Assembly: GCA_036402955.1 (NCBI GenBank)
Contig: DASWRX010000022.1
Span: forward strand, 1,442-65,441
Direction: 5' to 3'
Length of the DNA: 64,000 nucleotides
From: Thermoanaerobaculia bacterium
GTDB lineage: Bacteria; Acidobacteriota; Thermoanaerobaculia; Multivoradales; UBA5704
Positions 1 to 53,237 of this stretch are shown here, piece by piece. The position numbers and the translations under genes are program-made. Under the pieces are notes generated by a model. The model saw only the letters and a list, made by a program, of their open reading frames with translations, searched no databases and was not told where the DNA came from. The stretch's first letter is position 1; each line of letters starts with the position of its first letter.

Positions 1-3000
1 GCGTCCGCGTTACGAGAGCCATCGCGCGGCTGTCCTCCAGGGCCCAGACCACGCGTTCGCGGGGCCAGTGGGGATCGAGGGGGAGGAAGGCGCTCCCGGC
101 CTTCCAGACCCCGAGGGCGGCGGCGGCGAAATCGGCGGTGGCGGCGAGCTGGAGCGCGACGATGCGCTCCGGCCCCGCGCCGAGGGCCCGCAGGTGGTGC
201 GCCAGGCGGTTGGCCCGGCGGTCGAGCTCCTCGTAGGAGACCTCGCTCCCCTTCCAGACCAGGGCGGCGGCGGCCGGCCGTTGCCGGACCCGCTCCTCGA
301 ACAGCGCCAGGACGGACGGGGGGGTGGGCGGCTCGGGGACCGCGCCGCTCCACTCCGCGAGGAGCTGGCGGCGCTCCTCCGGCGCGAGCAGGCCGGCGTC
401 CGCGGCGGGCCGGCGCGGGTCGTCCAGCAGGCTCGCCAGCAGGGTCTCCAGATGGCCCCCCATGCGCCGGATCGTGGCGGCGTCGAAGAGATCGGCGTTG
501 TAGGCCAGCCGCGCCTCCAGGCCGTAGGAGGTCGCGGTGACCTGCAGCGTCAGGTCGTACAGCTCGACGGTGGAGCCCACGTCGAGGAAGCCGAGGGTGA
601 GGCCGGGGAGCTCCAGGGCGTGCCAGGGGGCGCTGCCCATGGCGAAGCAGACCTGGAAGACCGGGTGCCGCGACAGGTCGCGCGCCGGCTGCAGCTCCTC
701 GACCAGCCGCTCGAAGGGGAGATCCTGATGGGCGTAGGCGCCCAGCGCCATCTCGCGCACCCGCGCCAGCAGCCGGTCGAAGCCGGGATCGCCCGCGAGG
801 TCGGTCCGCAGCACCAGCATGTTGACGAAGAAGCCGATCAGCTTCGCCGTCTCCGCCCGGTTGCGGTTGGCGATCGGCGTGCCCAGGAGGAGGTCGCGCC
901 GTCCGGTGTAGCGCTGGAGCAGCGAGCCGAACGCCGCCAACAGGGCCATGAACAGGGTGACCCGGTGCGCGCGGGCGAGCGCGTGCAGGTCCTCCACCCG
1001 GGGGATCGGCACCACCACGAGGCCGCCGTCGTAGGTCTGCACGGCGGGGCGCGGCCGGTCGGCCGGCAGCTCGAAGACCAGCTCCGCGCCGGCGAGCTGC
1101 CGCCGCCAGTAGGCGAGCTGGGCGTCGAGGGCGGCGCCGCCGAGCCAGCGGCGCTGCCAGAGGGCGAAGTCCGCGTACTGGACCGGCAGCTCGGGCAGCG
1201 CGGAGGAGCGCCGCTCGACGAAAGCCGTATAGAGGGCCGCCAGCTCGCGGACGAACAGCTCCAGCGACCAGCCGTCGGAGACGATGTGGTGCATCGAGAG
1301 CAGGAGGACGTGGTTGTCGCTCTCCATGCGGAGCAGCGCGGCCCGCAGCAGCGGCCCGCGGGTCAGCGAGAACGGCCGCGCCATCTCCTGGCGGGCCTGG
1401 CGGAGCGCCTCCTCCTCGCGCGCCGCGGGAGCCAGCGGGCGCAGGTCGGCGAGCGGCAGCGCGAAGGGGCTGTGGGCATGGACGGTCTGCGCCGGCTGCC
1501 CCGCCGAGCCGACGCGGAAGGTGGTGCGCAGCGCCTCGTGCCGGCGGACGATCCCGTCGAGGGCGCGCTCCAGCGCCGCGGCGTCCAGCCGGCCGGTCAG
1601 CGAGAAGGCGGCCGCGACGTTGTAGAACGGGCTCTCGCCGCCGGCCATCTCGTCGAGGAACCAGAGCCGCTGCTGGGCGAAGGAGAGCGGGATCTCCGCC
1701 GGCCGCGGCATGGGGACGATCGGCGGCAGCTCCAGCCCCTCGCCCGCCAGCAGCAGAGCCTCGACGTGGTCGGCCAGCTCGGCCAGCGTGGGGTGCTCGA
1801 ACAGCGCCCGCGTCGGCAGCTCGACCCGGAAGGTGGCGCGGGCGAGCGAGGTCACGGCGGTGGCCGTCAGCGAGTGGCCGCCGAGGTCGAAGAAATTGTC
1901 GTGCGCCCCGACTCGCCGCGGCGGGACGATGCGCAGCACCTCCGTCCAGATCCCGGCGAGCACCTCCTCGACCGGCGTGCGGGGAGCCACCCAGCCGGCC
2001 GTCGCCGCGCTCTCCACCGCGCCGGGGTCCGGCAGCGCGGCGCGGTCCACCTTGCCGTTGGGCGTGCGGGGGAGGGCGGCGACCTCGACGAAGGCGGCGG
2101 GCAGCAGCGGCTCCGGCAGCTTCGCGGCCAGGAAGTCGCGCAGCTCCCGCGCGGCGGGGGCGGGAGCGCGCCGCGGCACCACCCAGGCGATCAGCGCCAG
2201 CTCTCCCGCCGCGTCGCGTCGGCCCCCCACGGCGCAGCCGGCGAGGGCGGGATGGACGGCGAGCGCGGCCTCCACCTCCGCCGGCTCGACGCGGAAGCCG
2301 CGGATCTTGAGCTGGCCGTCCACCCGGCCCAGGAACTCGACGGCGCCGTCCGGCCGGAAGCGGGCGAGATCCCCCGTCCCGTAGAGGCGGCTGCCGGGCG
2401 CCGCGTCCTCCCCGAGGACGGACGGGCGGGGCACGAAGCGCTCGGCGGTCAGGGCGGGACGGCCGCAGTAGCCGCGGGCGAGACCGTCGCCGCCGATGTA
2501 GAGCTCCCCGGCCACCCCGACCGGCACCGGCCGCAGGCTGGCGTCGAGCAGCGTCACCGTGGTGTTGGCGAGCGGGCGGCCGATGGGGACCGTGGCGGCC
2601 CCGGACGCCACCTCGCGGACCCGCTGCCAGGTGGTGAAGGTCGTCCCCTCGGTGGGGCCATAGACGTTCAGCAGCCGCGCCGGCGGCCCGGCCGCCAGCA
2701 CCTCCGCCATCCGGGTGGGATCGACCGCCTCGCCACCCACCAGCAGGTGGCGCATCATGGCGAAGCCGCCCGGGTCGAGGCTCGCCAGCCGGTTGAACAG
2801 GGCGGTGGTGAGGAAGCCGGCGGTGATCCCCCGCTCGCGGATCTCACGGTAGAAGTCCTCGGGAGAGAGGGTCACGTCGCGCTCGACCGCAACCAGCCGG
2901 CCGCCGTTGAGCAGCGCTCCCCAGACCTCGAAGGTGGCCGCGTCGAAGGAGGCGTTGGAGACCTGGGCGATCCGGTCGGCGGCGGTCAGCGGCGCGTAGT

Positions 3001-4948
3001 CGGCGTCGCGGACGAGCCGGACGACGGCGCGGTGGGGGACGGCGACACCCTTCGGCAGGCCGGTCGATCCCGAGGTGTAGACCACGTAAGCGAGGCTGTC
3101 CGGCGTGGCGCCGCCCGGGGGGAGATCCCCAGCCTCTTCCGCCGCCGCCAGCTCGTCGAGCAGGAGCGTGGGCGGCCGGGAGGCGGGGAGGCGGGAAGCG
3201 ATGTCCCGGCGGGTGATCAGGGCGCGGACCCGGCCGTCCTCCAGCATGAAGGCGAGCCGCTCGGCGGGATAACCGGGATCGAGCGGCAGGTAGGCGCCCC
3301 CGGCTTCCAGCGCCGCGAGCCAGGAGACCACCATCTCCGGTCCCCGCTCCAGGAAGACGCCGACGAGATCGTCCGGGCCGATCCCCAGCTCCCGCAGCCG
3401 CCGCGCCAGGCCGCGCGACCGCCGGGCCAGCTCGCGATAGCTCACGGTCTCCGCGGGGGAGACCAGGGCGGGGGCGTCGGGCGAGCGCTCCACCTGGGCC
3501 GCGAACAGGCCGGGGATCGTCGCCTCCCGGGGATAGCCGGTGCGGACGTCGTTCCACTCGGCGGCGAGCTGATGGCGCTCGGGATCCGTGAGCAAAGCGA
3601 GCTCCGAGAGGCGCCGCTCGGGGTGGCGCGCGGCGTCGCCGAGCAGGGTCCGCCAGTGGAGGGAGAGGCGGGCGACGGTCGGCGGCTCGAAGAGGGAGGC
3701 GGCGTACTCCCAGAAGCCGTGGATGCCGCCGGGGGCGTCCACCAGATTGAGGCTGAGGTCGAACTTGGAGGTGCCGGAGTGGACCTCGACCAGCTCCAGG
3801 CGAAGCTCCCCGCTTGCGGACGTGGGGACCGGCGGCCGCTGGACGCCGAGCGCTACCCGGAACAGCGGGTTCTGGTCGAGCCGCCGCTCGGGGCGCAGCT
3901 CCTCGACCAGCTTCTCGAACGGCAGGTCCGCGTGGGCGAAGGCCTCCACCGCCGCATCGCGCGTCCGGCCGAGCAGCTCGTGGAACGCCGGGTCTCCCGA
4001 GAGGTCGCCGCGCAGCGCCAGGGTGTTGACGAAGCAGCCGATCACCCCCTCGGTCTCCGTGCGCGTCCGGCCGGCGACCGGCGCGCCCACCACGAGGTCG
4101 GTCTGGCCGCCGTGCCGGGAGAGCAGCGCCTGGAAGCCGGCGAGGAGGGTCATGAAGAGCGTGCCCCCGGCGTCGCGCGAGAGGTCCCGCAGCTCTCCGG
4201 ACAGCTCCGGCGGCAGCTCGACCGAGTGCATGCCTCCCGCGCCGTCCGCAGTGCCGCGGGCATGGGGATGGTCGGCGGGGAGGGCGAGGTCCGCGGGGGC
4301 CCCTTCGAGGCGGCGGCGCCAGGGGGCGAGCTGCCGCTCCAGCGCCTCCCCCTGCAGCCACTCCCGCTGCCAGACCGCGAAGTCGGCGTACTGGATCGGC
4401 AGCTCGGCGAGCGTCGAGGGACGCCCCGCGCGGAACGCCGCGTAGACCTCCAGCAGCTCGCCGACGAGCAGGCCGAGCGACCAGGCGTCGGTGACGATGT
4501 GGTGCTGGTTGAGGAAGAGCAGGTGCTCCTCGCTCCCGAGCCGGAGCAGCAGGACGCGCAGCAGCGGCGCCCGGCCTAGATCGAACGGGCGCGCGGCCTC
4601 GCGCCGGATCAGCGCCCGGGTCTCCGCCTCCCGCCGGTCTGCCGGCAGCGCCGTCAGATCGACGGCGGGGAGGGGGACCGCGAGCGCCGCGGCGATCACC
4701 TGCACCGGCTCGCCCTCCTCCTCGGCGAACGAGGTGCGCAGGGTCTCGTGGCGGGCCACGACCGCGTCCAGGGCGGCGGCGAGCGCGCCGGAATCGAGAG
4801 GACCCCAGAGCCGCAGCGCGAGGGGGACGTTGTAGGTGGCGAGGCCCGGGCTCAGGGCGTCGAGCAGCCAGAGCCGCCGCTGGGCGAAGGAGACCGGGGC
4901 GACGAAAACCTCCGGCTCCAGCTCTTCGTAGGGGATCTCCTGGATCAT
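1..4948 (-). CDS. Non-ribosomal peptide synthetase, C-A-T-C-A(partial); 3' end runs off the window
   Basis: Absent from the ORF track because no stop lies inside the window. ATG at 4948 is 18 nt after the TAG (4967-4969) of the upstream NRPS, with an AGAGGA Shine-Dalgarno-like box. My own translation starts MIQEIPYEELEPEVFVAPVSFAQRRLWLLD. Motifs: C QHHIVTDAWS; A YTSGSTGLPKG / FDAATFEVW / NVYGPTEGTTF; T FFDLGGHSLTA; second C MHHIVSDGWS; then the start of a second A domain. No listed minus-strand ORF terminates in this frame, consistent with it staying open to the window edge. Confidence 0.88.
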   Translation of the reverse strand, partial: MIQEIPYEELEPEVFVAPVSFAQRRLWLLDALSPGLATYNVPLALRLWGPLDSGALAAALDAVVARHETLRTSFAEEEGEPVQVIAAALAVPLPAVDLTALPADRREAETRALIRREAARPFDLGRAPLLRVLLLRLGSEEHLLFLNQHHIVTDAWSLGLLVGELLEVYAAFRAGRPSTLAELPIQYADFAVWQREWLQGEALERQLAPWRRRLEGAPADLALPADHPHARGTADGAGGMHSVELPPELSGELRDLSRDAGGTLFMTLLAGFQALLSRHGGQTDLVVGAPVAGRTRTETEGVIGCFVNTLALRGDLSGDPAFHELLGRTRDAAVEAFAHADLPFEKLVEELRPERRLDQNPLFRVALGVQRPPVPTSASGELRLELVEVHSGTSKFDLSLNLVDAPGGIHGFWEYAASLFEPPTVARLSLHWRTLLGDAARHPERRLSELALLTDPERHQLAAEWNDVRTGYPREATIPGLFAAQVERSPDAPALVSPAETVSYRELARRSRGLARRLRELGIGPDDLVGVFLERGPEMVVSWLAALEAGGAYLPLDPGYPAERLAFMLEDGRVRALITRRDIASRLPASRPPTLLLDELAAAEEAGDLPPGGATPDSLAYVVYTSGSTGLPKGVAVPHRAVVRLVRDADYAPLTAADRIAQVSNASFDAATFEVWGALLNGGRLVAVERDVTLSPEDFYREIRERGITAGFLTTALFNRLASLDPGGFAMMRHLLVGGEAVDPTRMAEVLAAGPPARLLNVYGPTEGTTFTTWQRVREVASGAATVPIGRPLANTTVTLLDASLRPVPVGVAGELYIGGDGLARGYCGRPALTAERFVPRPSVLGEDAAPGSRLYGTGDLARFRPDGAVEFLGRVDGQLKIRGFRVEPAEVEAALAVHPALAGCAVGGRRDAAGELALIAWVVPRRAPAPAARELRDFLAAKLPEPLLPAAFVEVAALPRTPNGKVDRAALPDPGAVESAATAGWVAPRTPVEEVLAGIWTEVLRIVPPRRVGAHDNFFDLGGHSLTATAVTSLARATFRVELPTRALFEHPTLAELADHVEALLLAGEGLELPPIVPMPRPAEIPLSFAQQRLWFLDEMAGGESPFYNVAAAFSLTGRLDAAALERALDGIVRRHEALRTTFRVGSAGQPAQTVHAHSPFALPLADLRPLAPAAREEEALRQARQEMARPFSLTRGPLLRAALLRMESDNHVLLLSMHHIVSDGWSLELFVRELAALYTAFVERRSSALPELPVQYADFALWQRRWLGGAALDAQLAYWRRQLAGAELVFELPADRPRPAVQTYDGGLVVVPIPRVEDLHALARAHRVTLFMALLAAFGSLLQRYTGRRDLLLGTPIANRNRAETAKLIGFFVNMLVLRTDLAGDPGFDRLLARVREMALGAYAHQDLPFERLVEELQPARDLSRHPVFQVCFAMGSAPWHALELPGLTLGFLDVGSTVELYDLTLQVTATSYGLEARLAYNADLFDAATIRRMGGHLETLLASLLDDPRRPAADAGLLAPEERRQLLAEWSGAVPEPPTPPSVLALFEERVRQRPAAAALVWKGSEVSYEELDRRANRLAHHLRALGAGPERIVALQLAATADFAAAALGVWKAGSAFLPLDPHWPRERVVWALEDSRAMALVTRT

Positions 4949-4966
4949 GGTCCTCTTCTCTTCTCT

Positions 4967-7900
4967 CTAGACGGTGCGCCGGACCCGTCGCGGGAGAGCC
5001 GCGAGGTCGGGCTCCGGCGCGGCGTCTGCCGCGGCTTCGACGGCGCGAGCCATCGCCGCCAGCGTGGGGGCGTGGAAGACGACCTGGGCGGAGAGGTCGC
5101 GGCGGAAGCGGTCGCGCAGCCGGGAGGCCAGCCGCGTCGCCAGCAGGGAATGGCCCCCCAGCTCGAAGAAGTCGTCCTCCCGGCCCACCCGCTCGACCCC
5201 CAGGAGGTCGCGCCAGAGCTCCGCGAGGGCCTGCTCGACGGGGGTGGCGGGCGGCGCGAAGGCGGCGGACCCCTGCCGCTCCGGCGCCGGCAGGGTCCGC
5301 CGGTCCAGCTTGCCGCTGGGCGTGCGCGGCAGGGCGGGGAGGGACTGGAAGGCGGCCGGCAGCATGTGCTCCGGCAGGCTCCGGCGGAGGAAAGCGCGCA
5401 GCTCGGCCGCGTCCGGCAGAGCCGTGCCGGCCGGGCCCGCCGGCACCCACCAGGCGGCGATTCCGGGCTCTCCCGGAGCGATCTCGCGCACCGCCGCCGC
5501 GCACTCGCGCACGGCGGGATGGCGCCCGAGGGCCGACTCGATCTCCCCCAGCTCGATGCGGAAGCCGCGCACCTTCACCTGCCGGTCGACGCGGCCGAGG
5601 AACTCCAGGTCGCCGTCTGGCAGCCGGCGGGCGAGGTCGCCGGCGCGGTACAGACGAGCTCCCGGCTCGCCGCCGAACGGGTCGGGGACGAACCGCTCGG
5701 CCGTCAGCTCCGGCCGCTGGAGATAGCCGCGGGCGAGCCCGGCGCCGCCGACGTTGATCTCGCCGGGGACGCCGATGGGGACCTCCTCGCCGCGCGGTCC
5801 CAGCAGGCGGAGCGAGAGATCCGGCAGCGGTGGGCCGATGCGGCTGCGCGAGGCGGCGGCGTCCGCCCGCTCGACCGGGCGCCAGGTGACGTGCACCGTG
5901 GTCTCGGTGATGCCGTACATGTTGGCCAGCCGGGGTTGCCGGTCGCCGTGGCGCTCGATCCAGGGGCCGAGGCTCCGCGGATCGAGCGCCTCGCCGCCGA
6001 AGATCACCCAGCGCAGGGCGAGGAACCGCGGGGCGCCGGCCTCGGCATCGACGAGACTGAGCTGGCGGAAAGCGGAGGGGGTCTGGTTGAGCACCGTTAC
6101 CCCCTCCTCGGCCAGCAGCTGGTGGAAGTCGCGGGGGGAGCGGACGGTCTCGGAGGGGGGCACCACCAGCCGGCCGCCATGGAGCAGGGCGCCCCAGATC
6201 TCCCACACCGAGAAGTCGAAGGCGTAGGAGTGGAAGAGGGTCCAGACGTCCCCGGGGCCGAAGCCGAAGCGGGAGCGGGCGGCCGCGAACAGCCGGGCGA
6301 CGTTGCCGTGGGTGACCACGACCCCCTTGGGGCGGCCGGTCGAGCCGGAGGTGTGGATGACGTAGGCGGGATGGTCCGGCAGCAGACCGGTCTCCGGGGC
6401 GCGCTCCGCCTCGTCGCCGGTCTCCAGGATCACCAGGCGCGCGTCTCCCCGCGGGATCGACTCCGCGAGGGCGGCCTCGACGAGCAGCACCGGCGCGCCC
6501 TCCAGCATCGCCACCAGCCGCTCCGGAGGATAGGCGGGATCGAGGGGGACGTAGGCGCCGCCGGCCTTGAGCACGCCGAGCAGGGCGACCAGCATCTCCA
6601 GGCCCCGGTGGACGCACAGCGCCACCCGCACCTCGGGCCCCACGCCCAGCGCGCGGAGCCGGTGGGCGAGGGCGTTGGCCTTGCGGTCCAGCTCCCGGTA
6701 GGTCAGGCCGTGGCCCTGGTGGATGACCGCGACCACGTCCGGCGTCCGCGCCGCCTGCGCCTCGAACCGGCGGGGGAGGGGAGCGACCGGGAGGCCGTCG
6801 GTACCGGCGGCCTCGGCGTTTCCCCAGGCCCGGAGCTGCTCCCGTTCGGCCGCCGCCAGCATCGGCAGCTCGGATATGCGCCGGCCTGGCTCGGCCACCG
6901 CCGCGGCGAGCAGGGTGGTCAGGTGGCGGCCCATCCGCTCGATCGTGGGGGCCTCGAACAACGAGGTATTGAGCTCGAGTTGCAGGATGCCGAGCCGCCC
7001 GCGCTCCATGCCGGCGAACAGGATGAGGTCGGTCTGCGACGTGCCGTTGTTGATTCCCCGCGGCTCGACGGCGAGGCCGGGCAGCGCGAGGTCGGGGCTC
7101 GGCGTGTTCTGCAGCGAGAACATGGCCTGGAAGATCGGGCCGTAGCTGGGGTCCCGACGGGGGCGCAGCTCCTCGACCAGCTTGTCGAACGGCAGCTCCT
7201 GGTGCTCGTAGACGTCGAGCACCACGTCGCGCACCCGCGCCAGCAACTCGCCGAAGGTGGGATCGCCGTCCAGGCGGACGCGGAACACCACGGTGTTGAC
7301 AAAGAAGCCGATCAGCCCCTCGGTCTCCATGTTCGTGCGCCCCGCCACCGGCGCGCCCAGCACCACGTCGTCCTGGCCGCTCCAGCGGTGGAGCAGGGCG
7401 TCGAAGCCGGCGAGCAGCACCATGTAGAGGCTGGCCCCGGCGAGGTGCGTGTGCCCGGCCAGGGCGTCGGGGAGCCCGGCGGGGAGGTCGAGCGTCACCC
7501 GCTCGCCGCCGTAGGCGCGCGCCGCCGGCCGCGGCCGGTAGGTGGGCAGCTCCAGCCGGTCGGGAGCGCCGGCGAGCTGCCCCTTCCAGAAGCGGAGCTC
7601 CTCCTCCAGCCGCTCCCCCTGGAGCCGCTCGCGCTGCCAGAGCGCGAAGTCCGGATACTGGACGAACGGCTCCGGCAGCGGCGAGGGGAGCCCCTGCGCG
7701 AACGCCGTGTAGAGCACCGACAGCTCGCGGTAGAAGACGCCGAGCGACCAGGCGTCCGAGATGATGTGGTGCATGGTCACCAGCAGCAGATGGACGCGGC
7801 CGCCGAGGCGCAGCAGGTGGGTGCGCCAGAGCGGCCCGCGCGCCAGGTCGAACAACCGGCGGGCCTCCTCCCGGGCGAGCTCCCAGGCGGCCTCTTCGCC

Positions 7901-8308
7901 GCGGTCCGCGGGAAGCGCGGAGAGGTCCACCCGCGGGATCGGGCGGGGCACGTGCGGCTGGATCACCTGGAAGGGGACGCCGTCCTGGTCGGCGAAGACC
8001 GTGCGCAGCGACTCGTGGCGGCGCTCGATCTCCTGGAAACAGCGCTCGAGAGGGCCCGGCCGCAGCTCCCCGGTGAGCCGGAAGCAGAGCAGGGGGAGGT
8101 TGTAGAAGGGATTTCCCGGCTCCATCTGGTCGAGCAGCCAGAGCCGCTGCTGCACCAGCGAGGCGGCCACCGGCGCCTCCCCGGCCGGGCGCGGCAGGAT
8201 CTCCGGCGCCTGCGCGCCCCAGCCGCTCTCGGCCAGCCGGCGGGCGAACAGGGCCCGCTGCTCCGGCGAGAGGGCGGCGAGGCCCTTGTGCAGCTCGCGA
8301 AGACTCAT
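4967..8308 (-). CDS. Non-ribosomal peptide synthetase, single module C-A-T
   Basis: Track ORF 4967..8392. I prefer Met29 (ATG at 8308, MSLRELHKGL...), 22 nt after the radical SAM stop. Motifs: C MHHIISDAWS; A IHTSGSTGRPKG, FDFSVWEIW, NMYGITETTVHVT; T FFELGGHSLLAT. Confidence 0.9.
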   Translation of the reverse strand: MSLRELHKGLAALSPEQRALFARRLAESGWGAQAPEILPRPAGEAPVAASLVQQRLWLLDQMEPGNPFYNLPLLCFRLTGELRPGPLERCFQEIERRHESLRTVFADQDGVPFQVIQPHVPRPIPRVDLSALPADRGEEAAWELAREEARRLFDLARGPLWRTHLLRLGGRVHLLLVTMHHIISDAWSLGVFYRELSVLYTAFAQGLPSPLPEPFVQYPDFALWQRERLQGERLEEELRFWKGQLAGAPDRLELPTYRPRPAARAYGGERVTLDLPAGLPDALAGHTHLAGASLYMVLLAGFDALLHRWSGQDDVVLGAPVAGRTNMETEGLIGFFVNTVVFRVRLDGDPTFGELLARVRDVVLDVYEHQELPFDKLVEELRPRRDPSYGPIFQAMFSLQNTPSPDLALPGLAVEPRGINNGTSQTDLILFAGMERGRLGILQLELNTSLFEAPTIERMGRHLTTLLAAAVAEPGRRISELPMLAAAEREQLRAWGNAEAAGTDGLPVAPLPRRFEAQAARTPDVVAVIHQGHGLTYRELDRKANALAHRLRALGVGPEVRVALCVHRGLEMLVALLGVLKAGGAYVPLDPAYPPERLVAMLEGAPVLLVEAALAESIPRGDARLVILETGDEAERAPETGLLPDHPAYVIHTSGSTGRPKGVVVTHGNVARLFAAARSRFGFGPGDVWTLFHSYAFDFSVWEIWGALLHGGRLVVPPSETVRSPRDFHQLLAEEGVTVLNQTPSAFRQLSLVDAEAGAPRFLALRWVIFGGEALDPRSLGPWIERHGDRQPRLANMYGITETTVHVTWRPVERADAAASRSRIGPPLPDLSLRLLGPRGEEVPIGVPGEINVGGAGLARGYLQRPELTAERFVPDPFGGEPGARLYRAGDLARRLPDGDLEFLGRVDRQVKVRGFRIELGEIESALGRHPAVRECAAAVREIAPGEPGIAAWWVPAGPAGTALPDAAELRAFLRRSLPEHMLPAAFQSLPALPRTPSGKLDRRTLPAPERQGSAAFAPPATPVEQALAELWRDLLGVERVGREDDFFELGGHSLLATRLASRLRDRFRRDLSAQVVFHAPTLAAMARAVEAAADAAPEPDLAALPRRVRRTV

Positions 8309-8330
8309 CGGGTGTCTCCAGATCCCGGCC

Positions 8331-10223
8331 TTACGCGGGGACCGCCTCCATCGGGGCGTAGCGCCGGAGAATCCGTTCCGGCCGGGTCTCATCCGGAAGG
8401 ACGAGGCTCACCAGCCGCGGCCCGTCCTCGAAAACGAGCTCCAGGGCGCGCAGCCGGTCCAGCCCGGCGTCGAGGTCCAGCGGCGGATCGAAGGCGACCT
8501 TGGCCAGCTCCTGCAGGGTGGTCGGCTCGGCCAGGGCCTCCAGCAGCCGGCGGCCCGCCTCGCCGACGTCGTGGACGACCGTGGACCCGGAGCGGGTGTC
8601 GCGCACCGTCCGGCCGCCGGGCCGCTCGAAGTGGAGCACCGGGGGTCTCCCCTCGACCCAGGCGGCGCGCCAGGTCCCTTGAGCCTTGCGCATCCGGTTG
8701 ATCCAGCGGGCGACGGCCAGGAAGTAGGGGGCCGCCATGTTGCGATCGGCGAAGTAGTAGGCCAGGTTGCGCAGGCTCTCCGGCGGCAGGGGATAGACCT
8801 GTGGGTAGAAGTCGAGCGGCGTCAGGTCCAGCCCATACTGCGCGGCCTGGGTGAAGTAGGGGCTGAAGCGGTCGAAGCGGACGGGGAAGACCCCGGACGG
8901 GGGAGGCAGGTGGACCAGCCGCGGGATCACCTCGACGTAGCGCTTGAAGACCTCCTCACCCTCGCCGGGGAAGCCGACCAGGAGGTTCCACGCGGGGTGG
9001 AGGTCGTGGACCAGGCAGTGCCGGAGGAAGGCGACGTTCCGCACCGAGGTCATCCCCTTGCGCATCAGCTTGAGCGTCGAGGTCGCCAGCGCCTCGATCC
9101 CGGGCTGGACGGAGTGCACCCCGCCGGCCGCGAGCAGCTCGATCTCCTCTTCGGTGAGATCGGCCTTGACCTCGTAGAAGATGGCCGCCCCGGGCGGCGT
9201 CTCGAGCCTGGCGAGCACCTCGCGCGGGTACTCCTTCGGCATGATGTTGTCCACGCAGTTGAACTGCCGGGCCCGCGGGAAGTAGGCGAAGAGGGAGCGG
9301 ATCGCCGCCACCGCCTTCTCCGGCTGCATCCAGCGGAAGCCCATGGTCGAGCCGTTGAGCCCGCAGAAGGTGCAGTGGGCCCGCTCCCCCCACCAGCAGC
9401 CGCGCGAGGTCTCGAACATCAGCGCGGGCTCCAGCCCCGCGCCGGCGAAGGCCCCCTCGAAGGAGCGCAGGAAGGAGTCGTAGTCGAGCGGCACCTCCTC
9501 GTCGATGTCCAGCTCGGCGCCGATCACCGCGGCGCCGGGAGAGCCAGCGCCGTCATAGCGGCCCGAGCGGCGGGTGAAGACGCCGTCGATCCGCTCCGCC
9601 CGCTCGCGGTCCCCGGCCAGGAGGCCGTCGACCAGCTCGGGGAAGGAGAGCAGGGCGGGACCCGAGAAGACATAGTCGATCGCCGCCACCCGGCGGGCGA
9701 TCTCCTCCCCCATGGGGGACTCGCAGTTGGCGCCCCCGATGGCGGTGACCACCCGCGGGTTGCGCTCCTTGAGCCGCCGGGCGAGGGCGAAGGAGGCCAC
9801 GTTCTGGCCGAACATGGAGGTGAACCCCACCAGGTCGGACTGATCGAGCCGGTAGGTCTCGATCACCCCGTCCAGCCAGCGGCTGAGCCCCGGGCGCGCC
9901 GCCAGCAGGCGGTCGAACGCCGCCTGCCGCTCGTCCCGCGCCGGGAAGTAGCGCTGCCGGTACGTGACGGCGTTGTCCGGCGCCTCCGGGAAGGCGAGCT
10001 GGCGGAAGAGCCAGTCCCCCAGCCCCGAGTGCGAGGCCTCGTCGCACGCCTGGAGATAGTCGGCGAGCCCCAGCAGGCGGCAGGCGTCGTGCGAGGCGTA
10101 GCAGATGTCGACCGGGACCCCGGACCCGAACCGGCGGCGGATCATGGTCTGGAGCTGGGTCAGGGCGATCGAGGGGATCTCGATCGAGGAGAAGGGCATG
10201 TTGACGAGAGAGATCCGGAACAT
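8331..10223 (-). CDS. B12-binding-domain radical SAM enzyme of the RiPP-maturation (C-methyltransferase-like) type
   Basis: 630-aa ORF starting MFRISLVNMPFSSIEIPSIALTQL. Rossmann-like cobalamin-domain segment VGFTSMFGQNVASFALARRLKERNPRVVTAIGGANCE. Cys triad with CX7CX2C spacing in SRGCWWGERAHCTFCGLNG. GAGGAG Shine-Dalgarno box 5-6 nt before the ATG. The family assignment is from memory of the CWWG...CxFCGLN signature, not from a search. Confidence 0.8.
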   Translation of the reverse strand: MFRISLVNMPFSSIEIPSIALTQLQTMIRRRFGSGVPVDICYASHDACRLLGLADYLQACDEASHSGLGDWLFRQLAFPEAPDNAVTYRQRYFPARDERQAAFDRLLAARPGLSRWLDGVIETYRLDQSDLVGFTSMFGQNVASFALARRLKERNPRVVTAIGGANCESPMGEEIARRVAAIDYVFSGPALLSFPELVDGLLAGDRERAERIDGVFTRRSGRYDGAGSPGAAVIGAELDIDEEVPLDYDSFLRSFEGAFAGAGLEPALMFETSRGCWWGERAHCTFCGLNGSTMGFRWMQPEKAVAAIRSLFAYFPRARQFNCVDNIMPKEYPREVLARLETPPGAAIFYEVKADLTEEEIELLAAGGVHSVQPGIEALATSTLKLMRKGMTSVRNVAFLRHCLVHDLHPAWNLLVGFPGEGEEVFKRYVEVIPRLVHLPPPSGVFPVRFDRFSPYFTQAAQYGLDLTPLDFYPQVYPLPPESLRNLAYYFADRNMAAPYFLAVARWINRMRKAQGTWRAAWVEGRPPVLHFERPGGRTVRDTRSGSTVVHDVGEAGRRLLEALAEPTTLQELAKVAFDPPLDLDAGLDRLRALELVFEDGPRLVSLVLPDETRPERILRRYAPMEAVPA

Positions 10224-10281
10224 ATCTGGTCTCCTCAGGAGAGACTCATTCTGACATTGAACATTGTAAATAATCTGGCCG

Positions 10282-21449
<11,168 letters not shown>

Positions 21450-21453
<4 letters not shown>

Positions 21454-25745: not shown

Positions 25746-28700
25746 GGGCGCGTCCTCTTGAGGCTGGTCCGGCGGTCCCTCCGGAGCTCGCCCCGGCTCG
25801 ACCGCGCTTCGAACGGATCGGCCCGCTCCCCGCCGGTGTCCTCCGCCACGAAGCGGGCGATGGCATCCACCGTGGGGTGCTCGTACAGACTGAAGGTGCG
25901 TCCGTCCAGGTCGAAACGTGCCTGGACTGCGTGGACCACCTGGAGGCCGACCAGTGAGTCCCCCCCGAGCTCCAGAAAGTTGTCGAGGGCGCCGATCCGC
26001 TCGATGCCGAGGGCCCGGCTCCAGATCTCGGCGACCGCCCGCTCGGTCTCGTCCCGGGGAGCGACATAGGGATTGCGGAGGAGGGGCCGGTCGTGGATCG
26101 CCTGGAGCGCGGCCGGGGAGGGGAGAGCGGGAAGCCGTTCCTCGACGCTCTCCGGAGCCTCCGGATGGTCTCCCCCGGACCGCCGCGCCGCCGTCACTCC
26201 TTTCGCGAGGAGGAGGTCGGCTGCCGGGCCGATCCCGTCCTCGCTCTCCCACAGCAGGGCCAGGATGCCGGTCCGGCGCTCCGCCAGGGCCGCGAGATAG
26301 CGGAAGGTGGGGGGATCGGCCGTATGGAGGACGGCAGAGAGGGGGGTCCGCTCCGGCTCGCGGAGCGTCCGTGCCTCGGCGAGGTCGCGGACGAAGAGGA
26401 CCTTCGTTCCTTCCACCCGCTCCGCGGGCCGGCGGGCCACGAGCAGGGCGGAGTCCCCAGCTCCCGAGCAGGCCTGAGGCTCGGCGAAGCCGCAGCGGGC
26501 GAGCAGCCCCTCCCAGGCCTCGGGACCGAGCAGCGGCGAACCCCGCCGCAGCTCCCCGTCCTCGAAGCTCCACCAGCCGTCGGTCAATCCCCAGACCAGG
26601 GTCCCCCAGCGCTGGGGATGGACGGTCTCGACCAGGCCCAGCAGGCCGCCGGGGGCGAGCAGCGAGCGCAGGTTCGCCAGGGTCTCCGCCAGGCGCGGCG
26701 TGGCATGGACCACGTCGGCCCCGATCACGGCGTCGAAGGTTCCCGGCGCGAACCCCTGCGACGCCGGATCGCGGGTGACGTCCAGCATCCCGAAACGGAG
26801 GAAGCCCTGGCCGGCCTCCCGCGCCCGCCGCTCGGCGCGCAGCACGAAGGCGCGGCCGACGTCCGTGAAGTGGTACTCGACCTCCCGTCCATTGAGGGCG
26901 GGGAGCAGCTCCGCCGTCAGCGTCCCCTGGCCGGCGCCGATCTCCAGGATTCTATAGGGCGGGTCATTCGACGGCCGCTCCCGGACCGCGGCGGCCAGCA
27001 CCTCGCGCAGCAGGCGGGCGGCGGCGTTCGGCCCCTCTCCCTGCCGGGAGAACAGCTCGGAGCTCCCGTCGGGATAGAGCACCGCGAGCCCCGGCACCTC
27101 GCCGGAGAGGGCCGCGGGGTAGTGATGGCCGCAGTGGTCGATCAGGTCATAGAGCGGGCCGAAGCCGGGGAAGCGCGTCTCCAGGGCCCGGCGGGTCTCG
27201 GCGGGGAACGGAGCCGCGGCCATGGCGGGGAGGAACCGGACGGCGTCCCCGTCCACCTCGGCCAAGCCGTCCTCTCGCAGTACGCCAAGAAGGAAGTCCA
27301 GGAGGCGCTCGTACTTCGGGAGCAGCCGGAGGCGGCGGCGCAGCTCGGGAAGGGGGATGGCGGGCCCTTGCGGGAGGCCGTCCCGAAAATACTCGACGGC
27401 GTGGCTCGTCACCAGCGGATCGGTCGCCTCGGCCATCTGCGAGGCGGGCTCCGCGGAAGATTCCGCCGCGATCTCCCGGGCCATCCGCCCGATCTCGGCG
27501 GCGTCCGGCCCGGTCTCCTGGCGGCCGGGCGCGGGGGCCACGTTTTCCCAGGTCTCGCGCCAGCGCTTGCCGCCGCGGTGGGCGATCACCGTTCCGGCCT
27601 CGAAGGGGGCGGCGATCTCGGCCAGGACGCGGGCGGTCCACCGGCGCGCCTCCGGGCCCTCCAGAACTGGGGGCGGCTCCACGTCCAACCCGCGCCCGGG
27701 GATGCCCAGGGCCGCGCAGACTCCCAGCAGAGCCGCGCGCTCGGGGTCGGCGTCCGCTCCCGAGGTGATCACGTCCACCTTCACCGCAAGAGGTCTGCCG
27801 CGGAGGGCCGCGGCGAGCGCGTCGAGACCCCGCGCCGCCGCATGGACGATCCGCAGCGGCCGGCCCTCCTCCATGCCCTCCAGGACCGCGGCCAGCAGCG
27901 CCGCGAAATCCTCCGCCCGCCCGGGATCGACGGTGAAGGCGCCGGCCGACAGCCGCGAGAACCCCGCGCCGGGGACCGCGACGACCGGCTCCAGCCGTTC
28001 CGCCTGGAGGCCCTGGACGATCAGGGAGCCCATCCCTCCCTCCTCGATGACGGCCAGCCAGACCGCGCCCTCCCCCCGCAGGTCGTCTTGCGAGGAGACC
28101 GGGAGCGTCTGCCGCCAGAGCGGCGTCTGGAGGACAGGGCCGGTCGTCCCGGCCGTTTCCGGCTGGGATTGAATCCAGTAACGCCGCCGCTCGAAGGGAT
28201 AGGTCGGGAGAGAGACCTTCCGCCCCGGCGTGCCCACCGCGCTCCAGTCCACCTCCACACCCGCCAGCCAGAGCCGGCCCAGGGCTTCGAGCAGGCTCTC
28301 CCGCGCGGCGGTGGGCGCTGCCGGATGGGGGAGTGAGGGGACCGCCTCCCCCCCGTGCCGGCGGACCAGCGAGGCGAGCGTCCGCCCCGGACCCACCTCC
28401 AGCAGCACCCGCCGCCGGTCGGCCAGCAGCTCGGCCACGGCGGGCGAGAAGCGCACGGTCCGCCGCAGCGATTTTCCCCAGGTGGCGGGGTCCATCGCCT
28501 GCTCGATGGTGATCCAGCCGCCGGTGAGGTTCGACAGCCAGGGGATCTCCGGCGCGCCGGGCCGGGTCCGCCGCACCGCGTCCACGAAGGCGTCCAGGAT
28601 CGGCTCCAGGCTGCGCGAGTGGAACGCCCGGCGCACCGGCAGCGGGCGCGCGTCGATCCCCCGCGCCGCCAGCCTCTCTCGGAGCCGCCCGACCGCCTCG

Positions 28701-30765
28701 GGAGAGCCCGCGACGACGCAGCGGTCCGGAGCGTTGACCGCCGCGAGCTCGACCTCGCCATCCAGGTCCTCCAGCCACGGCCCGAGGTCCGCCTCGGCCA
28801 AGGGAACGGCGAGCATGGCCCCCTCGGCGGCCGACTGCATGAGCTGGCCGCGCCGGACCACCAGCCGCAGGGCGTCCGGGAGCGAAAAGACCCCGGCGAT
28901 GCAGGCCGCCACGTACTCGCCCAGGCTGTGGCCGAGCACGGCGGCCGGCTTCACCCCCCACGACATCCAGAGCCGCGCCAGGGCGTACTCGACCGCGAAC
29001 AGCGCCGGCTGGACCTCCGCGGTCTCGGTGAAGTCACCGGTGGCGAGGAGCCGCCGCAGATCGATCCCGAGCGGCGCCAGCGCCGCGCCGCAGGAATCGA
29101 GCGCCGCGCGGAAGGCCGGCTCCCGCTCGTAGAGGCCGGCGGCCATGCCCGCGTGCTGCGCTCCCTGCCCCGGGAAGAGGAAGACGACCGGGCGCTCCCC
29201 AGCCGGCGGCGTCCCGCTGAGCGCCTCCCCGCCGGCGAGCTTCCGTGCGGCCTCGGCGGCGCTCCCGGCCACCGCGAAGCGGCGGACCGCCATGGGCTGG
29301 CGGCCGAGGCGCAGCGTGCGGGCCACGGCGGCCAGCCGCAGTTCGGGACTCCGTTCCAGATGCCGGGCGAGGCGCGCCGTGGCGGCCTCCAGGGCGGTGG
29401 CCGTGCGCGCGGAGACGAGCAGCAGCTCCGGGCCGTCCTCTTCGTCCTCCTCGTCCCTCCGGGGGGGCGCCTCCTCCAGCACCACGTGGGCGTTGGTGCC
29501 GCCGATGCCGAAGGAGCTGACCCCCGCCCTGCGCGGCGCCGCCGACTCCCAGGGCTCCAGGCGCGAGCTCACCCGGAACGGACCGGCGTCGAGATCGATC
29601 TCCGGGTTGGGCCGCTCGAAGTGCAGGGTGGGAGGGATCTCCCGGTGCTCCAGCGCCAGCACGGTCTTGATCAGGCCGGTCACGCCGGCCGCCGCGTCCA
29701 GGTGGCCAAGGTTCGACTTGACCGAGCCGAGGACGCACGAGCCCTGGGGGGCGCCGCGGAAGGCCCGCTCCAGGGCGCGGACCTCGATCGGATCCCCCAT
29801 CGGCGTCGCGGTGCCGTGCGCCTCGACATAGCCGATCTCCCCCGGCTCCACGCCGGCGATGGCGAGGGCCAGCGCCACCACCTCGGCCTGCCCCGCCACG
29901 CCGGGCGCCGTGTAGCCCACCTTGCCGGCGCCGTCGTTGTTGAGGGCGGTGCCGCGGATCACGGCGCGGATCGGGTCCCCCGCCGCCAGTGCGTCTTCCA
30001 GACGCTTGAGCGCCACGACCCCCACGCCGTTACCGGGGACGGTGCCGCGCGCCCGGGCGTCGAACGGGCGGCAGTGGCCGTCGGGGGAGAGAATCCCCTG
30101 CTCCTGGTGGAGATAGCCCGTCCGCTGCGGCTCCCGCACCGAGACGCCGCCCGCCAGCGCGAGGTCGCACTGGTAGTTGAGGAGGCTCTGGCAGGCGAGC
30201 GCCACCGCCACCAGCGAGGTGGAGCAGGCGGTCTGCACGTCGAGGCTGGGGCCGGTGAGGTTCAGCTTGTAGGAGACCCGGGTGGTCAGGAAGTCCTTGT
30301 CGCTGGCGATGGCGACCTGCGGGTCGGCGATCGCCTCGCCGGCCGGCAGCAGGTTGTGCAGCAGGTAGGTGTTGAGGCTGGCGCCGCCGAAGACGCCGAT
30401 CGCGCCCGGTGAATCGCCGGACATCCGGCCGGGATCGCACCCGGCGTCCTCCAGGGCCTCCCAGGCGCACTCCAGGAACAGCCGGTGCTGGGGATCGAGC
30501 CGCTCCGCCTCTCGCGGGGTGACCTGGAAGAAGGGAGCGTCGAAGCGGTCGGCGCCCTCCAGCGCTCCCCCGGCCGGCACCCAGCGGGGATCGGCGAGCA
30601 GAGCGGGATCGGCCCCCGCCGCCAGCATCTCGTCCCGGGTGAAGCGGGAGATCGACTCGACGCCCCGCCGCAAGTTGTCCCACAGCTCGTCGGGATCGCG
30701 CGCGCCGGGCCAGCGTCCCGCCAGGCCGACGACCGCAATACCAGAGGTAATCCCAGGCTCGTCGC

Positions 30766-30769
<4 letters not shown>
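25742..30769 (-). CDS. Type I polyketide synthase module KS-AT-(unassigned ~330 aa)-methyltransferase-ACP
   Basis: 1675-aa ORF. KS motifs TACSTSLVAV, EAHGTATPMGDP, NLGHLDAAAG. AT motifs GHSLGE and RAFHS. SAM-MT motif I YRILEIGAGQGTLT. Carrier motif FLELGGDSLVGL. No NADPH-binding KR, DH or ER signature seen. The ATG at 30769 overlaps the permease stop. Confidence 0.9.
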
Positions 30770-33186
<2,417 letters not shown>

Positions 33187-33310
33187 CCGTCCTCTCCCCT
33201 CCGGCCGGTGGCTCCTGAAGGGTCTCTCAGAATACACCAATGTCTATAAGCCATTGCCTGGAGCGCGCCGGGGGGGTGGGCTGAGGGGAGGGTCGGCGCC
33301 GCTGTGGATC

Positions 33311-34825
33311 TCAGGAGTAGCCGTACTGGCCGCGGGTCATGCTGACGAAGTTCTCGTAGTCGATCTCCTTGACCAGCCGCAGCCGGCGCTCGAACAGCTC
33401 CCGGGCGGTGAAGTTGTTGCCGTCGTAGACCGGGAAATAGAAGTTCCAGCCTTCCGGGAAATCCCACACCGAGTACTTGGTCGGCATGCTGCGGAACAGC
33501 GAGATGGGGATCAGGTGGAAGACCGCGTAACGGGCCTTGGAGTCGCCGCTGGCGGTGACGAGCTCCCGGAGGTCCTGATAGCCGTCGCGGGTGTGCTCGA
33601 ACGTCTCCTCGGTCGCGTTGGGCGGGATGACCACCCCGAAGTTCATCTCCGGCAGCCCGGCGCTGGCGATCCGGGAGAGGATGCGGTTCTGGTCCTGGAC
33701 CGACTTCAGCTTCTTGTAGTTGCCCCGGCGGTCGAACGTCTCGACGGGGATGTAGACGCGGTACGCGCCCACCAGACGGCCGGTCTCGGCGTCGATCGTA
33801 TGGCTGAAGAGGGCCTCCATCACGTCTTCGTCGAGCTCGTTTTCCTTTCCCAGCAGCCGGCCGATCTCCAGGCCGTTCGGGAACTCCCAGGCGAACCTCA
33901 TCTTGCGCATCGCGGCGAACAGGTTCAGCAGATCCTCGCGCCCGCCCTTGCGGGCCGCCAGCAGGAGCAGGTTGTCGTCGGCGAAGTTGACGGTCTGGAT
34001 TCCGGCACGCTGGTAGTTCTCGAGCATGGCGAGGGAGGCGTCCAGGTCGAGAGCCTCGAACTTCGTCTGCCGGCTCTCGCAGAAATCGCATTCCCTGGGA
34101 CACCCGCGGGTGAAGTAGATGAACCCGATCGGCGAGGAGACCCCCGCCGGCACCGGACCGTCGTGGCTGTCGCTGTAGTTGTTGAGCTCCCGCAGCTTCG
34201 AGAAGGACGGATCGATGAGCTCCGGGAAGGGGTGGCTGTAGGGGCCGACGACGTTTCTGCCCGAGATGGCCATCGGCCGCGAGGAGGAGGACTGGCTGTT
34301 CAGGAAGCCCTCCGGGTCGAAGTCCCCGACGAAGGCGAGATCGGCTCCCATCGTCAGGTAGTCCTGGGCGCGCGCTTTGACGTCGGCACCGCCGACCATC
34401 ACCTTGATCGACGGCTTGCGCCGCTTGGCGTATGCGATGAGGTCGCGGATGACGCCCGACTCGTAGGTGAAGTGGCTCGACAGGCCGATCCATTCGGATC
34501 CGTCGATCGCCTCGTCCGCCGCGCTGAACGGTGCCCCCACCCGCTCGACGTCGATCCTGTATCCCTCCCAGTCGATGGTGCGGTAGATCTCGTCATGATC
34601 CGAGTCCATCACCCGGAGATCGAGGATGTCCACTTCCGCTGCGGCGTCTCTCTCGAGGATGGAGGCCACCCGCGGCAGGCTGGGTGGGATGATCTTCCGG
34701 TAGACGTTCCCGAGATAGCCGCCGGTCGTCTCGAGCTCCTCGAAGTCGGGATCCGTGAAGCCTGAGATCCTCAAGGCGACGGTGGGATGGTGGATCAGAG
34801 TCACCCTCGTCTTCGCAATTCCCAT
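33311..34825 (-). CDS. B12-binding-domain radical SAM enzyme (canonical CX3CX2C)
   Basis: Track ORF 33311..35275. The real start is probably Met151 (ATG at 34825, MGIAKTRVTLIHH...), preceded by GAGGGAAGGA. Cobalamin-domain-like segment IGLSSHFTYESGVIRDLIAYAKRRKPSIKVMVGGADV. Radical SAM motif FTRGCPRECDFCES. GC content is visibly lower than in the neighbouring synthase genes. Confidence 0.8.
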   Translation of the reverse strand: MGIAKTRVTLIHHPTVALRISGFTDPDFEELETTGGYLGNVYRKIIPPSLPRVASILERDAAAEVDILDLRVMDSDHDEIYRTIDWEGYRIDVERVGAPFSAADEAIDGSEWIGLSSHFTYESGVIRDLIAYAKRRKPSIKVMVGGADVKARAQDYLTMGADLAFVGDFDPEGFLNSQSSSSRPMAISGRNVVGPYSHPFPELIDPSFSKLRELNNYSDSHDGPVPAGVSSPIGFIYFTRGCPRECDFCESRQTKFEALDLDASLAMLENYQRAGIQTVNFADDNLLLLAARKGGREDLLNLFAAMRKMRFAWEFPNGLEIGRLLGKENELDEDVMEALFSHTIDAETGRLVGAYRVYIPVETFDRRGNYKKLKSVQDQNRILSRIASAGLPEMNFGVVIPPNATEETFEHTRDGYQDLRELVTASGDSKARYAVFHLIPISLFRSMPTKYSVWDFPEGWNFYFPVYDGNNFTARELFERRLRLVKEIDYENFVSMTRGQYGYS

Positions 34826-34942
34826 GCATCCTTCCCTCAGCCATCCTCTGGACCTGGTTGATTCCGAGTCCCAGAAGCAGCAGATTGACACCTGTGTGGT
34901 GCTTCTCAAGGGCTTATACGTGACAACTTCGGAGCTTTTGGA

Positions 34943-34971
34943 TCTATATGAAAAATGAATAATCTTAACAA
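34943..34971 (-). promoter_or_regulatory. Candidate sigma70-type promoter for the megasynthase operon (TTGTTA-17 nt-TATAGA) inside an AT-rich divergent intergenic region (34826-35018)
   Basis: Minus-strand read: TTGTTA (34971-34966), a 17-nt spacer, then TATAGA (34948-34943), about 115 nt upstream of the radical SAM ATG. This is the only strongly AT-rich stretch within about 35 kb. A plus-strand TTGGAT-16 nt-TAATCT pair could serve the divergent lipoprotein gene. Confidence 0.35.
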
Positions 34972-35018
34972 TTGCAACGGTGGGGCGTGGAGGCGGCGGC
35001 CGGAACCAGTCCTGCGGT

Positions 35019-47829: not shown

Positions 47830-47836
47830 GAAAGCC

Positions 47837-49744: not shown

Positions 49745-49869
49745 TCCGTCCGTCTTTGAGGACGGCCGCGGCCTCGTTTGGCAACGAAACCTTCCTTTGC
49801 TTGGCCCTCTGCAGGCCGGGAATGAATTTTGCGAAGGGCGAAGGCGTCAGCTTTTTCAGAAAGGGAGGG

Positions 49870-51519: not shown

Positions 51520-51571
51520 AGGGATCAGGCCGTGAAAGAAACCAAATCGATAGTCTGAGAAAGGATCGATC

Positions 51572-53236: not shown

Positions 53237-53237
53237 G

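Follow-up and report, generated by a model that had tools for sequence, protein, structure and literature searches.

The window analysed here is a 64,000-nt stretch of contig DASWRX010000022.1 from a Thermoanaerobaculia bacterium, whose minus strand from nt 1 to 33,251 probably carries most of a conserved operon of uncultured Acidobacteriota combining type I polyketide synthase (PKS) and non-ribosomal peptide synthetase (NRPS) genes. Judged by spacing and conservation, seven genes, G, F, E, D, C, B and A, form one operon, and sequence relationships place the host most likely in the class Thermoanaerobaculia. The predicted product is a peptide-polyketide hybrid with at least seven amino acids and at least three ketide units, the third PKS being deduced from orthologues. 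An initial annotation of the first 35 kb had proposed an uncharacterised hybrid PKS-NRPS pathway in a phylum with few characterised products. Both parts are borne out: a literature search found no characterised cluster with this gene set, and the closest relatives belong to metagenome-assembled genomes (MAGs) of Thermoanaerobaculia or uncultured Acidobacteriota. The novelty that it saw in the chemistry was overstated. Alpha-hydroxylation by luciferase-like monooxygenases (LLM; PMC10952193) and C-methylation by the radical S-adenosylmethionine (rSAM) enzyme DscE (PMC12858407) are published, each enzyme chemistry has published precedent, and the cluster itself is not a new kind of system.

The G+C content of the window is about 72-75%, and real genes were told from many spurious open reading frames (ORFs) by third-position GC (GC3 frame analysis) together with ORF calls. 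Domain strings come from Pfam, NCBIfam and a phmmer domain map. Eight co-directional minus-strand genes, A to H, fill nt 1 to about 34,825 (Table 1). The calls match the eight genes, 4-nt overlaps and gaps of 18-124 nt described initially: the overlaps are GTGA at 30766-30769, ATGA at 25742-25745 and GTGA at 21450-21453, and the spacers measure 18 nt (A/B), 22 nt (B/C), 58 nt (C/D) and 124 nt (G/H). The start of gene B is backed by an orthologue alignment that begins at residue 1; the ATG start of G, at 33186, was set by alignment, and its coding sequence shares the GTGA overlap with F. The content count also stands, with two PKS modules, seven NRPS modules, a C-methyltransferase (cMT) domain, an in-line LLM domain, a permease of the ADOP family and two class-B rSAM proteins. 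Domain searches agree that the window holds no thioesterase (TE) or reductase (R) domain. The assembly line does run past nt 1 as annotated, though the source contig (65,711 bp) reaches only about 1.4-1.7 kb beyond it and breaks off within gene A. On that contig the A protein has 2129 residues, 480 of them beyond the window, and is cut by the contig end; the stretch past nt 1 suffices to finish module 7 up to its thiolation (T) domain. The cluster is thus truncated in the source contig itself. Within-contig mis-assembly is unlikely because near-identical internal repeats are absent, no internal repeat exceeding 80% nucleotide identity.

Table 1. Features of the gene cluster and its intergenic regions, in window positions
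Feature	Position	Strand	Description
Gene A (partial)	<1..4948	-	NRPS C-A-T-C-A; modules 6 and 7
Gene B	4967..8308	-	NRPS C-A-T; module 5
Gene C	8331..10223	-	class-B (cobalamin-type) rSAM protein, TIGR03975, between NRPS genes
D-C spacer	10224..10281	-	AT-rich, 58 nt, GGCCAGATTATTTACAATGTTCAATGTCAGAATGAG...; 33 nt in L002
Gene D	10282..21453	-	NRPS A-T-C-A-T-C-A-T-C-A-T; modules 1-4
Gene E	21450..25745	-	PKS KS-AT-ACP-LLM
LLM domain of E	~21486-22511 (residues ~1079-1420)	-	MupA/Atu3671 FMN-dependent luciferase-like monooxygenase
Gene F	25742..30769	-	PKS KS-AT-linker-cMT-ACP
Gene G	30766..33186	-	ADOP permease, 806 aa
Conserved non-coding motif GCTTATAGACATTGGTGTATTCTGAGAGACCCT	33219..33251	-	33 nt, 33-65 nt upstream of G start
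Gene H	33311..34825 (or 34804)	-	B12-binding and rSAM protein
Intergenic region between H and the gene at 35019-36077	34826..35018	.	lowest GC of the window, 46-52%

Relatives were collected by a genome scan with E, and the window proteins were compared with the resulting loci by tBLASTn. Locus L005, which overlaps L002, lies on the closed 7.66-Mb chromosome of an 'uncultured Acidobacteriota' (OY970373.1); L011 and L006 are Thermoanaerobaculia MAG contigs and L009 is a 2.88-Mb Acidobacteriota contig. The order G-F-E-D'-C-B-A is shared by L005/L002, L011 and L004 with amino acid identities of 77-78% for G, 70% for F, 81-83% for E, 77-79% for both C and B, and 74% for A, each value coming only from the loci that cover that gene. 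Identities are 51-70% in L009 and L006, and the synteny spans at least five MAGs of Thermoanaerobaculia or Acidobacteriota with 56-83% amino acid identity. G is found directly upstream of F in L005 (78%), L011 (77%) and L009 (56%). The conserved positions of C and G show both to be true members of the operon, so that the conservation of rSAM and permease genes with the synthases, on which the initial reading of the cluster depended, holds for C and G and fails for H. The hypothetical gene at 35019-36077, which flanks the cluster, is also kept beside it in relatives, suggesting that the locus is vertically inherited.

The NRPS part is encoded by genes D, B and A. All six condensation (C), seven adenylation (A) and seven T domains keep their motifs, namely HHxxxD(G/A) in C domains, D235 and K517 in A domains and GGHS in T domains, as expected of a modular NRPS, the T domain of module 7 lying beyond the window. 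Neither an epimerisation (E) domain nor a dual E/C motif is found in the NRPS domains. Stachelhaus specificity codes were read against a GrsA fragment, which reproduces the canonical code DAWTIAAICK. The codes of D are, in order, DFMNNGLVFK, DIFHFGLILK, DALWLGGTFK and DAWFLGHVVK; that of B is DFWNIGMVHK; those of A are DAFFLGVTFK and DIEDLGGVSK. The first two codes of D and the second of A have no assigned residue. By comparison with published codes, DALWLGGTFK would specify Val, DAWFLGHVVK a Leu-like residue, DFWNIGMVHK Thr and DAFFLGVTFK an Ile/Val-like residue. The predicted peptide would then be rich in branched hydrophobic residues, of the type decorated by C-methylases.

Protein D opens with a complete A-T didomain (A1-T1) with no C domain before it, and A1 keeps D235 and K517. 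The initial statement that no loading module is visible is therefore doubtful, and 'lipopeptide' went too far, since no fatty acyl-AMP ligase (FAAL), starter C domain or acyl-loading part was seen in the window. Re-activation of a polyketide acid by A1 was ruled out by the retention of Asp235 and Lys517, and an origin of A1-T1 as a duplicate of another module was likewise rejected, its best match anywhere being 56% with no repeat above 80% at the nucleotide level. The relatives lack D residues 1-592, which correspond to A1-T1, and some also lack the core of A3. In L002 (1769-9967), L005, L011 and L004 the D orthologue has about 2731 residues and has lost the N-terminal A-T. These orthologues have also lost one A-domain core, which leaves a C-T module with an intact T domain; the first A domain of those proteins, with the Val code DALWLGGTFK, may load two carrier domains. 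Orthologues of A have 3687-3709 residues and run on into a PKS module that begins with a ketosynthase (KS). Outside Acidobacteriota the best matches of A are generic, at 45-49% identity to named myxobacterial and cyanobacterial records, and a metagenome scan with the end of the A orthologue of L004 retrieved NRPS relatives at 36-46% only.

Genes F and E encode the two PKS modules of the window. F starts directly with a condensing KS and has no loading domains. No dehydratase (DH) or ketoreductase (KR) was detected in its linker, and KR, DH and enoylreductase (ER) domains are absent from both F and E in Pfam and motif searches. Each module has the KS, acyltransferase (AT) and acyl carrier protein (ACP) catalytic motifs of a modular cis-AT type I PKS: both KSs keep the Cys/His/His residues (TACSTS, EAHGTAT, NLGHL), both ATs have GHSLGE, paired with HAFH in E but with RAFH in F, and the ACP motif is GGDS in F and NGNS in E. 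The HAFH motif identifies the AT of E as malonyl-type. The carboxyl-terminal domain of E matches TIGR04020 over the full profile (1-341) with 524.8 bits, for an NCBIfam cut-off of 244.45. MupA, a member of this subfamily and the founder of the LLM family, alpha-hydroxylates an ACP-bound beta-ketoacyl thioester and refuses the beta-hydroxy form, and OocM behaves alike (PMC10952193). Since E has no KR, the predicted beta-ketoacyl-S-ACP would be left as the substrate of its own fused LLM, which fits the substrate requirement of TIGR04020. The cMT of F would alpha-methylate its malonyl-derived unit, and the LLM of E would hydroxylate the alpha carbon of the beta-ketoacyl-S-ACP as shown for MupA and OocM. 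Among the Pfam-annotated genes of the window there is no NAD(P)H:flavin reductase; the mupirocin cluster also lacks one (PMC10952193).

The in-line LLM is an already known feature. Modules of the KS-AT-ACP-LLM type are widespread in cyanobacteria, Paenibacillus, Opitutaceae and Pyrinomonadaceae, and the best matches of E outside Acidobacteriota are generic (44-55%, in Paenibacillus and cyanobacteria). The domain belongs to the same LLM subfamily TIGR04020, with matching substrate logic, as those of MupA, OocM and CalD (PMC10952193) and the LLM domain annotated in microginin MicD (PMC9594780). MupA, OocM and CalD act on trans-AT PKS intermediates, whereas the LLM of E is fused in cis at the carboxyl terminus of a cis-AT module. 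Unlike MupA/OocM-type systems, E has no KS0 bimodule and the window has no detected flavin reductase. MtaG, MelG and CtaG also have an LLM-type oxygenase domain within the assembly line, but inserted in an NRPS module, whereas that of E follows a PKS ACP. In myxothiazol-type lines this monooxygenase domain leads to formation of a terminal amide; the Gly module with TE of MtaG-type lines is not found here. In loci L030, L034 and L068 the LLM is inserted inside an NRPS A domain as in MtaG, unlike the ACP-LLM arrangement of E.

Protein C scores 515.1 bits against TIGR03975 (NCBIfam cut-off 281.85), its residues 4-609 aligning to positions 1-606 of the profile. The family is named 'RiPP maturation radical SAM C-methyltransferase', RiPP standing for ribosomally synthesised and post-translationally modified peptide. 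The sequence GCWWGExxHCTFCGLNG is invariant and gives C276, C284 and C287 a non-canonical Cx7Cx2C spacing; PF02310 is recorded for many homologues. An AlphaFold (AF2) model of C, with a mean predicted local distance difference test (pLDDT) of 88.9, has OxsB, TokK, TsrM, MgmA and CysS as top folds in the Protein Data Bank (PDB), with E values of 1e-12 to 1e-9. At the level of its modelled fold C is a class-B (cobalamin-dependent) rSAM protein. Protein H combines PF02310 and PF04055, has the cluster motif CPRECDFC at residue 242 and reaches no NCBIfam family cut-off; its AF2 model (pLDDT 90.1) resembles CysS, TokK and MgmA most closely, and at fold level it is also a class-B rSAM protein. The 'two B12-type radical SAM proteins' of the initial annotation are thus right at fold level for C and H. 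Searches with phmmer of both proteins against PDB sequences gave no matches, and profile and fold searches alone reached B12-rSAM structures. C and H have no more than the superfamily in common, and comparison ruled out that they are paralogues of each other.

Soil metagenomes, together with MAGs that carry the label Thermoanaerobaculia, supply the closest homologues of C (60-78% identity). C occupies the same position in L002, L004, L005, L006 and L011, which represent four genomes or contigs, with 67-79% identity. Every examined context of C homologues at 44-78% identity is an NRPS/PKS one. In L165 the C-like rSAM (44%) comes after an NRPS-KS protein and is followed by a gene of the major facilitator superfamily (MFS); in L170 and L171 (44-54% range) it lies respectively beside an NRPS and a phosphopantetheinyl transferase (PPTase), and in a series made of PKS, C-A-T, rSAM and second rSAM; in L173 (51%) the series is NRPS, JmjC, ADOP-like permease and rSAM. 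The permease of that unrelated NRPS cluster (L173:7284-11965), duplicated and 39% identical to G, is directly upstream of the C-like gene, so that a permease-rSAM pairing recurs outside this cluster family.

We favour a role of C in modification of the non-ribosomal product. Methylcobalamin would be its methyl donor and unactivated sp3 carbons of the peptide the acceptors, so that Val, for instance, would become tert-Leu, a chemistry modelled on DscE of discodermin and PoyB/PoyC of polytheonamide. The nearest precedent, DscE, is a cobalamin-dependent rSAM enzyme of the discodermin NRPS cluster of 'Ca. Entotheonella', described in November 2025, which C-methylates Val of the released non-ribosomal peptide in vitro (PMC12858407). 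The dsc cluster is alike in being an NRPS cluster with a B12-rSAM C-methyltransferase and a peptide of branched hydrophobic character. DscE carries out 'RiPP-like' C-methylation of Val and Ala, and the counterpart role of C is predicted. The dsc cluster comes from a sponge symbiont of another phylum and lacks PKS modules, an LLM domain and an ADOP permease. In the present cluster, unlike in dsc, the rSAM gene has NRPS genes on both sides and keeps that place in relatives. The proteusin methylases PoyB and PoyC, presumably also members of TIGR03975, share with C the class-B fold and the expected C-methylation of unactivated peptide carbons; unlike them, C has no ribosomal precursor or leader nearby and its presumed substrate is non-ribosomal. 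CysS (cystobactamid) and TokK/ThnK (carbapenems), which methylate assembly-line or pantetheinylated intermediates and set a precedent for class-B rSAM enzymes in clusters for natural products, are among the nearest solved folds for C and are the nearest for H, but identities are only 12-15% and the substrates differ (O-methyl ether, carbapenam side chains).

Protein G is a full-length match to TIGR03434, the ADOP (Acidobacterial duplicated orphan permease) family, with 925.6 bits for an NCBIfam cut-off of 622.3, and is made of two MacB_PCD plus FtsX halves (Pfam). No gene of the window matches the ABC ATPase (ABC_tran). G resembles ADOP and MacB-FtsX proteins as a full-length duplicated permease that has no adjacent ATPase; here one such gene opens a conserved biosynthetic operon, with translational coupling to what follows. 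From this place, the simplest roles for G would be export of the product or protection (immunity) of the producer. The family has no assigned function, and virtually no literature on it was found. Another ADOP-like permease of the MacB_PCD/FtsX type, which shares 39% identity with G, is encoded at 62249->64000 (+) and runs off the right end of the window, indicating that ADOP paralogues are frequent in the genome.

At 30-65 nt upstream of G, a 33-nt motif, GCTTATAGACATTGGTGTATTCTGAGAGACCCT, is conserved in the window, L005 and L011 and lies between H and G. It has no match to the sigma-70 consensus or to Rfam, and is a candidate promoter or operator of the G-to-A operon. A scan of 30000-36500 for sigma-70 promoters and intrinsic terminators returned 0 sites, and an Rfam scan of the whole window 0 matches. 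The region 34826-35018, initially singled out as the only AT-rich promoter-like one, does have the lowest GC and may serve H as a divergent promoter, but low GC also marks 10126-10300, which covers the D-C spacer and the start of C and comes second with 53%. The D-C spacer may act as an internal promoter for C or take part in initiating its translation.

We prefer a line in which the NRPS acts before the PKS modules and the chain passes in the order D, B, A with its PKS module, F and E, an order that we rate about as likely as not. Loading would fall to the N-terminal A-T of D, the last steps to the pair of non-reducing PKS modules and the LLM, and release to an element that the window does not show. 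In support, the start of D varies in a way tolerable at the beginning of a line: it is A-T-C in the window and in the more distant L165, C1 directly after the LLM of E in L005, L011, L004 and L009 (C1 69% identical to that of the window), and the next A domain (A2), with no C1, in L006. In none of the genomes does F have a loader, and the orthologues of A close with PKS domains. With this order no variant is broken, the N-terminal erosion series is explained and the non-reducing modules fall last. Several points weigh against such a picture of the pathway. The amino-acid assignments depend on Stachelhaus codes, three of the seven having no assigned residue, and ADOP genes are abundant in these genomes, which weakens the proposal of a dedicated role for G but leaves it standing. 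As to the order, the LLM of E adjoins a C1-starting protein in the four relatives just named, a T-LLM-C junction exists in cis in seven unrelated loci (L007, L008, L018, L024, L041, L042 and L050), both favouring transfer from E to D, and we are aware of no precedent for a terminal ACP-LLM that lacks a TE. The same facts speak for a line colinear with the genes, in which an unseen loader would feed F, then E, on whose ACP the chain would be alpha-hydroxylated, then the first C domain of D, B and finally A with its PKS module, where release would take place; A1-T1 of the window would then be a recent insertion that breaks the hand-over from PKS to NRPS or, in a looped arrangement, feeds an amino-acid starter to F. 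Such a line also agrees with the A-T-KS-AT-T-LLM-C arrangement of L007, from the same class, with the C1 orthologue that opens the protein after E in L002 as well, and with the mid-chain action of MupA-type enzymes (PMC10952193). We consider it rather unlikely: in the window and L006 no C domain separates the ACP of E from the first aminoacyl-T, A1 with its D235 and K517 would activate an amino acid rather than a polyketide acid, F lacks loading domains and in all genomes has nothing but the permease upstream of it, and the D-like protein of L165 also starts with A-T, which suggests that this start is ancestral. A C-domain tree aimed at a polyketide-accepting subtype was discarded, the post-LLM C domains grouping by lineage and not by function. 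L165 (10001-21635) further encodes an A-like protein 63% identical to A; its last NRPS protein ends in a lone KS plus linker, after which come the C-like rSAM and the MFS transporter, with no TE. This layout is a hint that such lines do not follow gene order.

The stage at which C acts, and whether H belongs to the pathway, allow other readings. C could act earlier than on a released peptide: its substrate would then be a carrier-tethered aminoacyl or peptidyl intermediate, or else free SAM or a free amino acid; free-precursor C-methylation is known from the MeAZE and norcoronamic acid pathways. This earlier action, which we hold for possible rather than probable, would suit the location of C between two NRPS genes with spacers of 22-58 nt, its 4-nt overlap with B in L002 and L004, and the presence of CysS and TokK structures with pantetheinylated substrates among its top fold matches; published work also describes NRPS clusters in which a B12-rSAM enzyme C-methylates SAM (PMC12930334, PMC7277169). 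It fits less well with a TIGR03975 model built on peptide-modifying enzymes, with the released peptide used by DscE, the sole characterised NRPS-linked case found (PMC12858407), and, as a weak point, with the A-domain codes, none of which points to a pre-methylated building block. It is very improbable that C is an ordinary RiPP maturase for a precursor encoded elsewhere, its NRPS location being incidental. The family name would suggest it, but the position of C is kept in the five further loci, all the homologue contexts examined are NRPS/PKS, and the expected association with an NHLP/Nif11-type ribosomal precursor is not found beside C or in those contexts, C being flanked by NRPS genes across spacers of 58 and 22 nt that are too short for a precursor gene. 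One study set aside hits of the antiSMASH TIGR03975 RiPP rule as likely false positives (PMC9426513). H is probably a neighbour or strain-specific accessory and not a core member, against the initial placing of both rSAM genes in one 35-kb operon. It is missing from every relative in which its position could be read, namely L005, L011 and L009; there a divergent MgtE-like gene (L005, L011) or other genes (L009) stand between the flank gene and G. The conserved motif separates H from G. A search of 5.8 billion proteins gave 104 members of its family at E<=1e-10; the family is patchy, scattered over Acidobacteriota, Haliangium, alphaproteobacteria (Bradyrhizobium, Salinarimonas), the candidate phyla radiation (CPR) and DPANN archaea, with no conserved neighbours. 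Three further contexts of the family were inspected. In L166 (67%) and L168 (61%, Haliangium) the homologue is solitary with no PKS/NRPS nearby. In the third, L003, the closest homologue (71%) is divergent and stands beside a 4534-aa NRPS, which speaks for H as a functional tailoring enzyme of this strain in a cluster with two rSAM enzymes. So do its co-direction with G, 124 nt upstream with no terminator-like site in the scan, and a fold like those of CysS and TokK, whose substrates are pantetheinylated intermediates of natural products. Within the cluster family neither H nor A1-T1 occurs outside the window, and the two may have been gained together, H serving for instance to methylate the additional residue. 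On balance we find a tailoring role for H unlikely.

Acidobacteriota are among the most abundant soil bacteria, and to our knowledge almost none of their natural products are known. The closed 7.66-Mb chromosome among the relatives makes a complete copy of the cluster available for synthesis and heterologous expression. If C acts as proposed, the cluster would join discodermin as the second example of a non-ribosomal peptide C-methylated by radical chemistry, and it could show whether such rSAM enzymes act on or off the assembly line; tert-leucine-type residues are prized in drug leads. Mining rules that treat TIGR03975 as a RiPP marker mislabel such clusters, and the cluster offers a testable role for an ADOP permease. 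More speculatively, and with a small chance of being right as a whole, C may mark a large unrecognised TIGR03975 clade dedicated to NRPS/PKS lines in uncultured soil Acidobacteriota and Binatia, often paired with ADOP permeases, the line here running against gene order and ending in ACP-LLM. If true, this would give the first functional handle for the ADOP family, as exporters or immunity proteins, and the ACP-LLM line end would imply an oxygenase-assisted, thioesterase-free release.

The genes between 35 and 64 kb were ruled out as cluster members by their content, which is unrelated to natural-product synthesis. Besides the hypothetical flank gene and the second ADOP-like permease, they encode an MprF-like lysyl-phosphatidylglycerol (PG) synthase, CorA, a subtilase, an extracytoplasmic function (ECF) sigma/anti-sigma pair, phospholipase D (PLD)-like proteins, alcohol dehydrogenases (ADHs), PilZ and sulfatase-TPR proteins. 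Local tandem duplication seems common on the contig. An EEP-family gene followed by two tandem PLD-like genes, with about 72% nucleotide identity, lies at 45719-49105 (+), and two tandem sulfatase plus TPR genes at 57890-62169 (+). Three tandem paralogues of about 550 residues that have no match in Pfam occupy 49822-54851 (+), with ORFs at 49822-51519, 51572-53236 and 53238-54854; the first two are 89% identical at the nucleotide level and the third about 73%.

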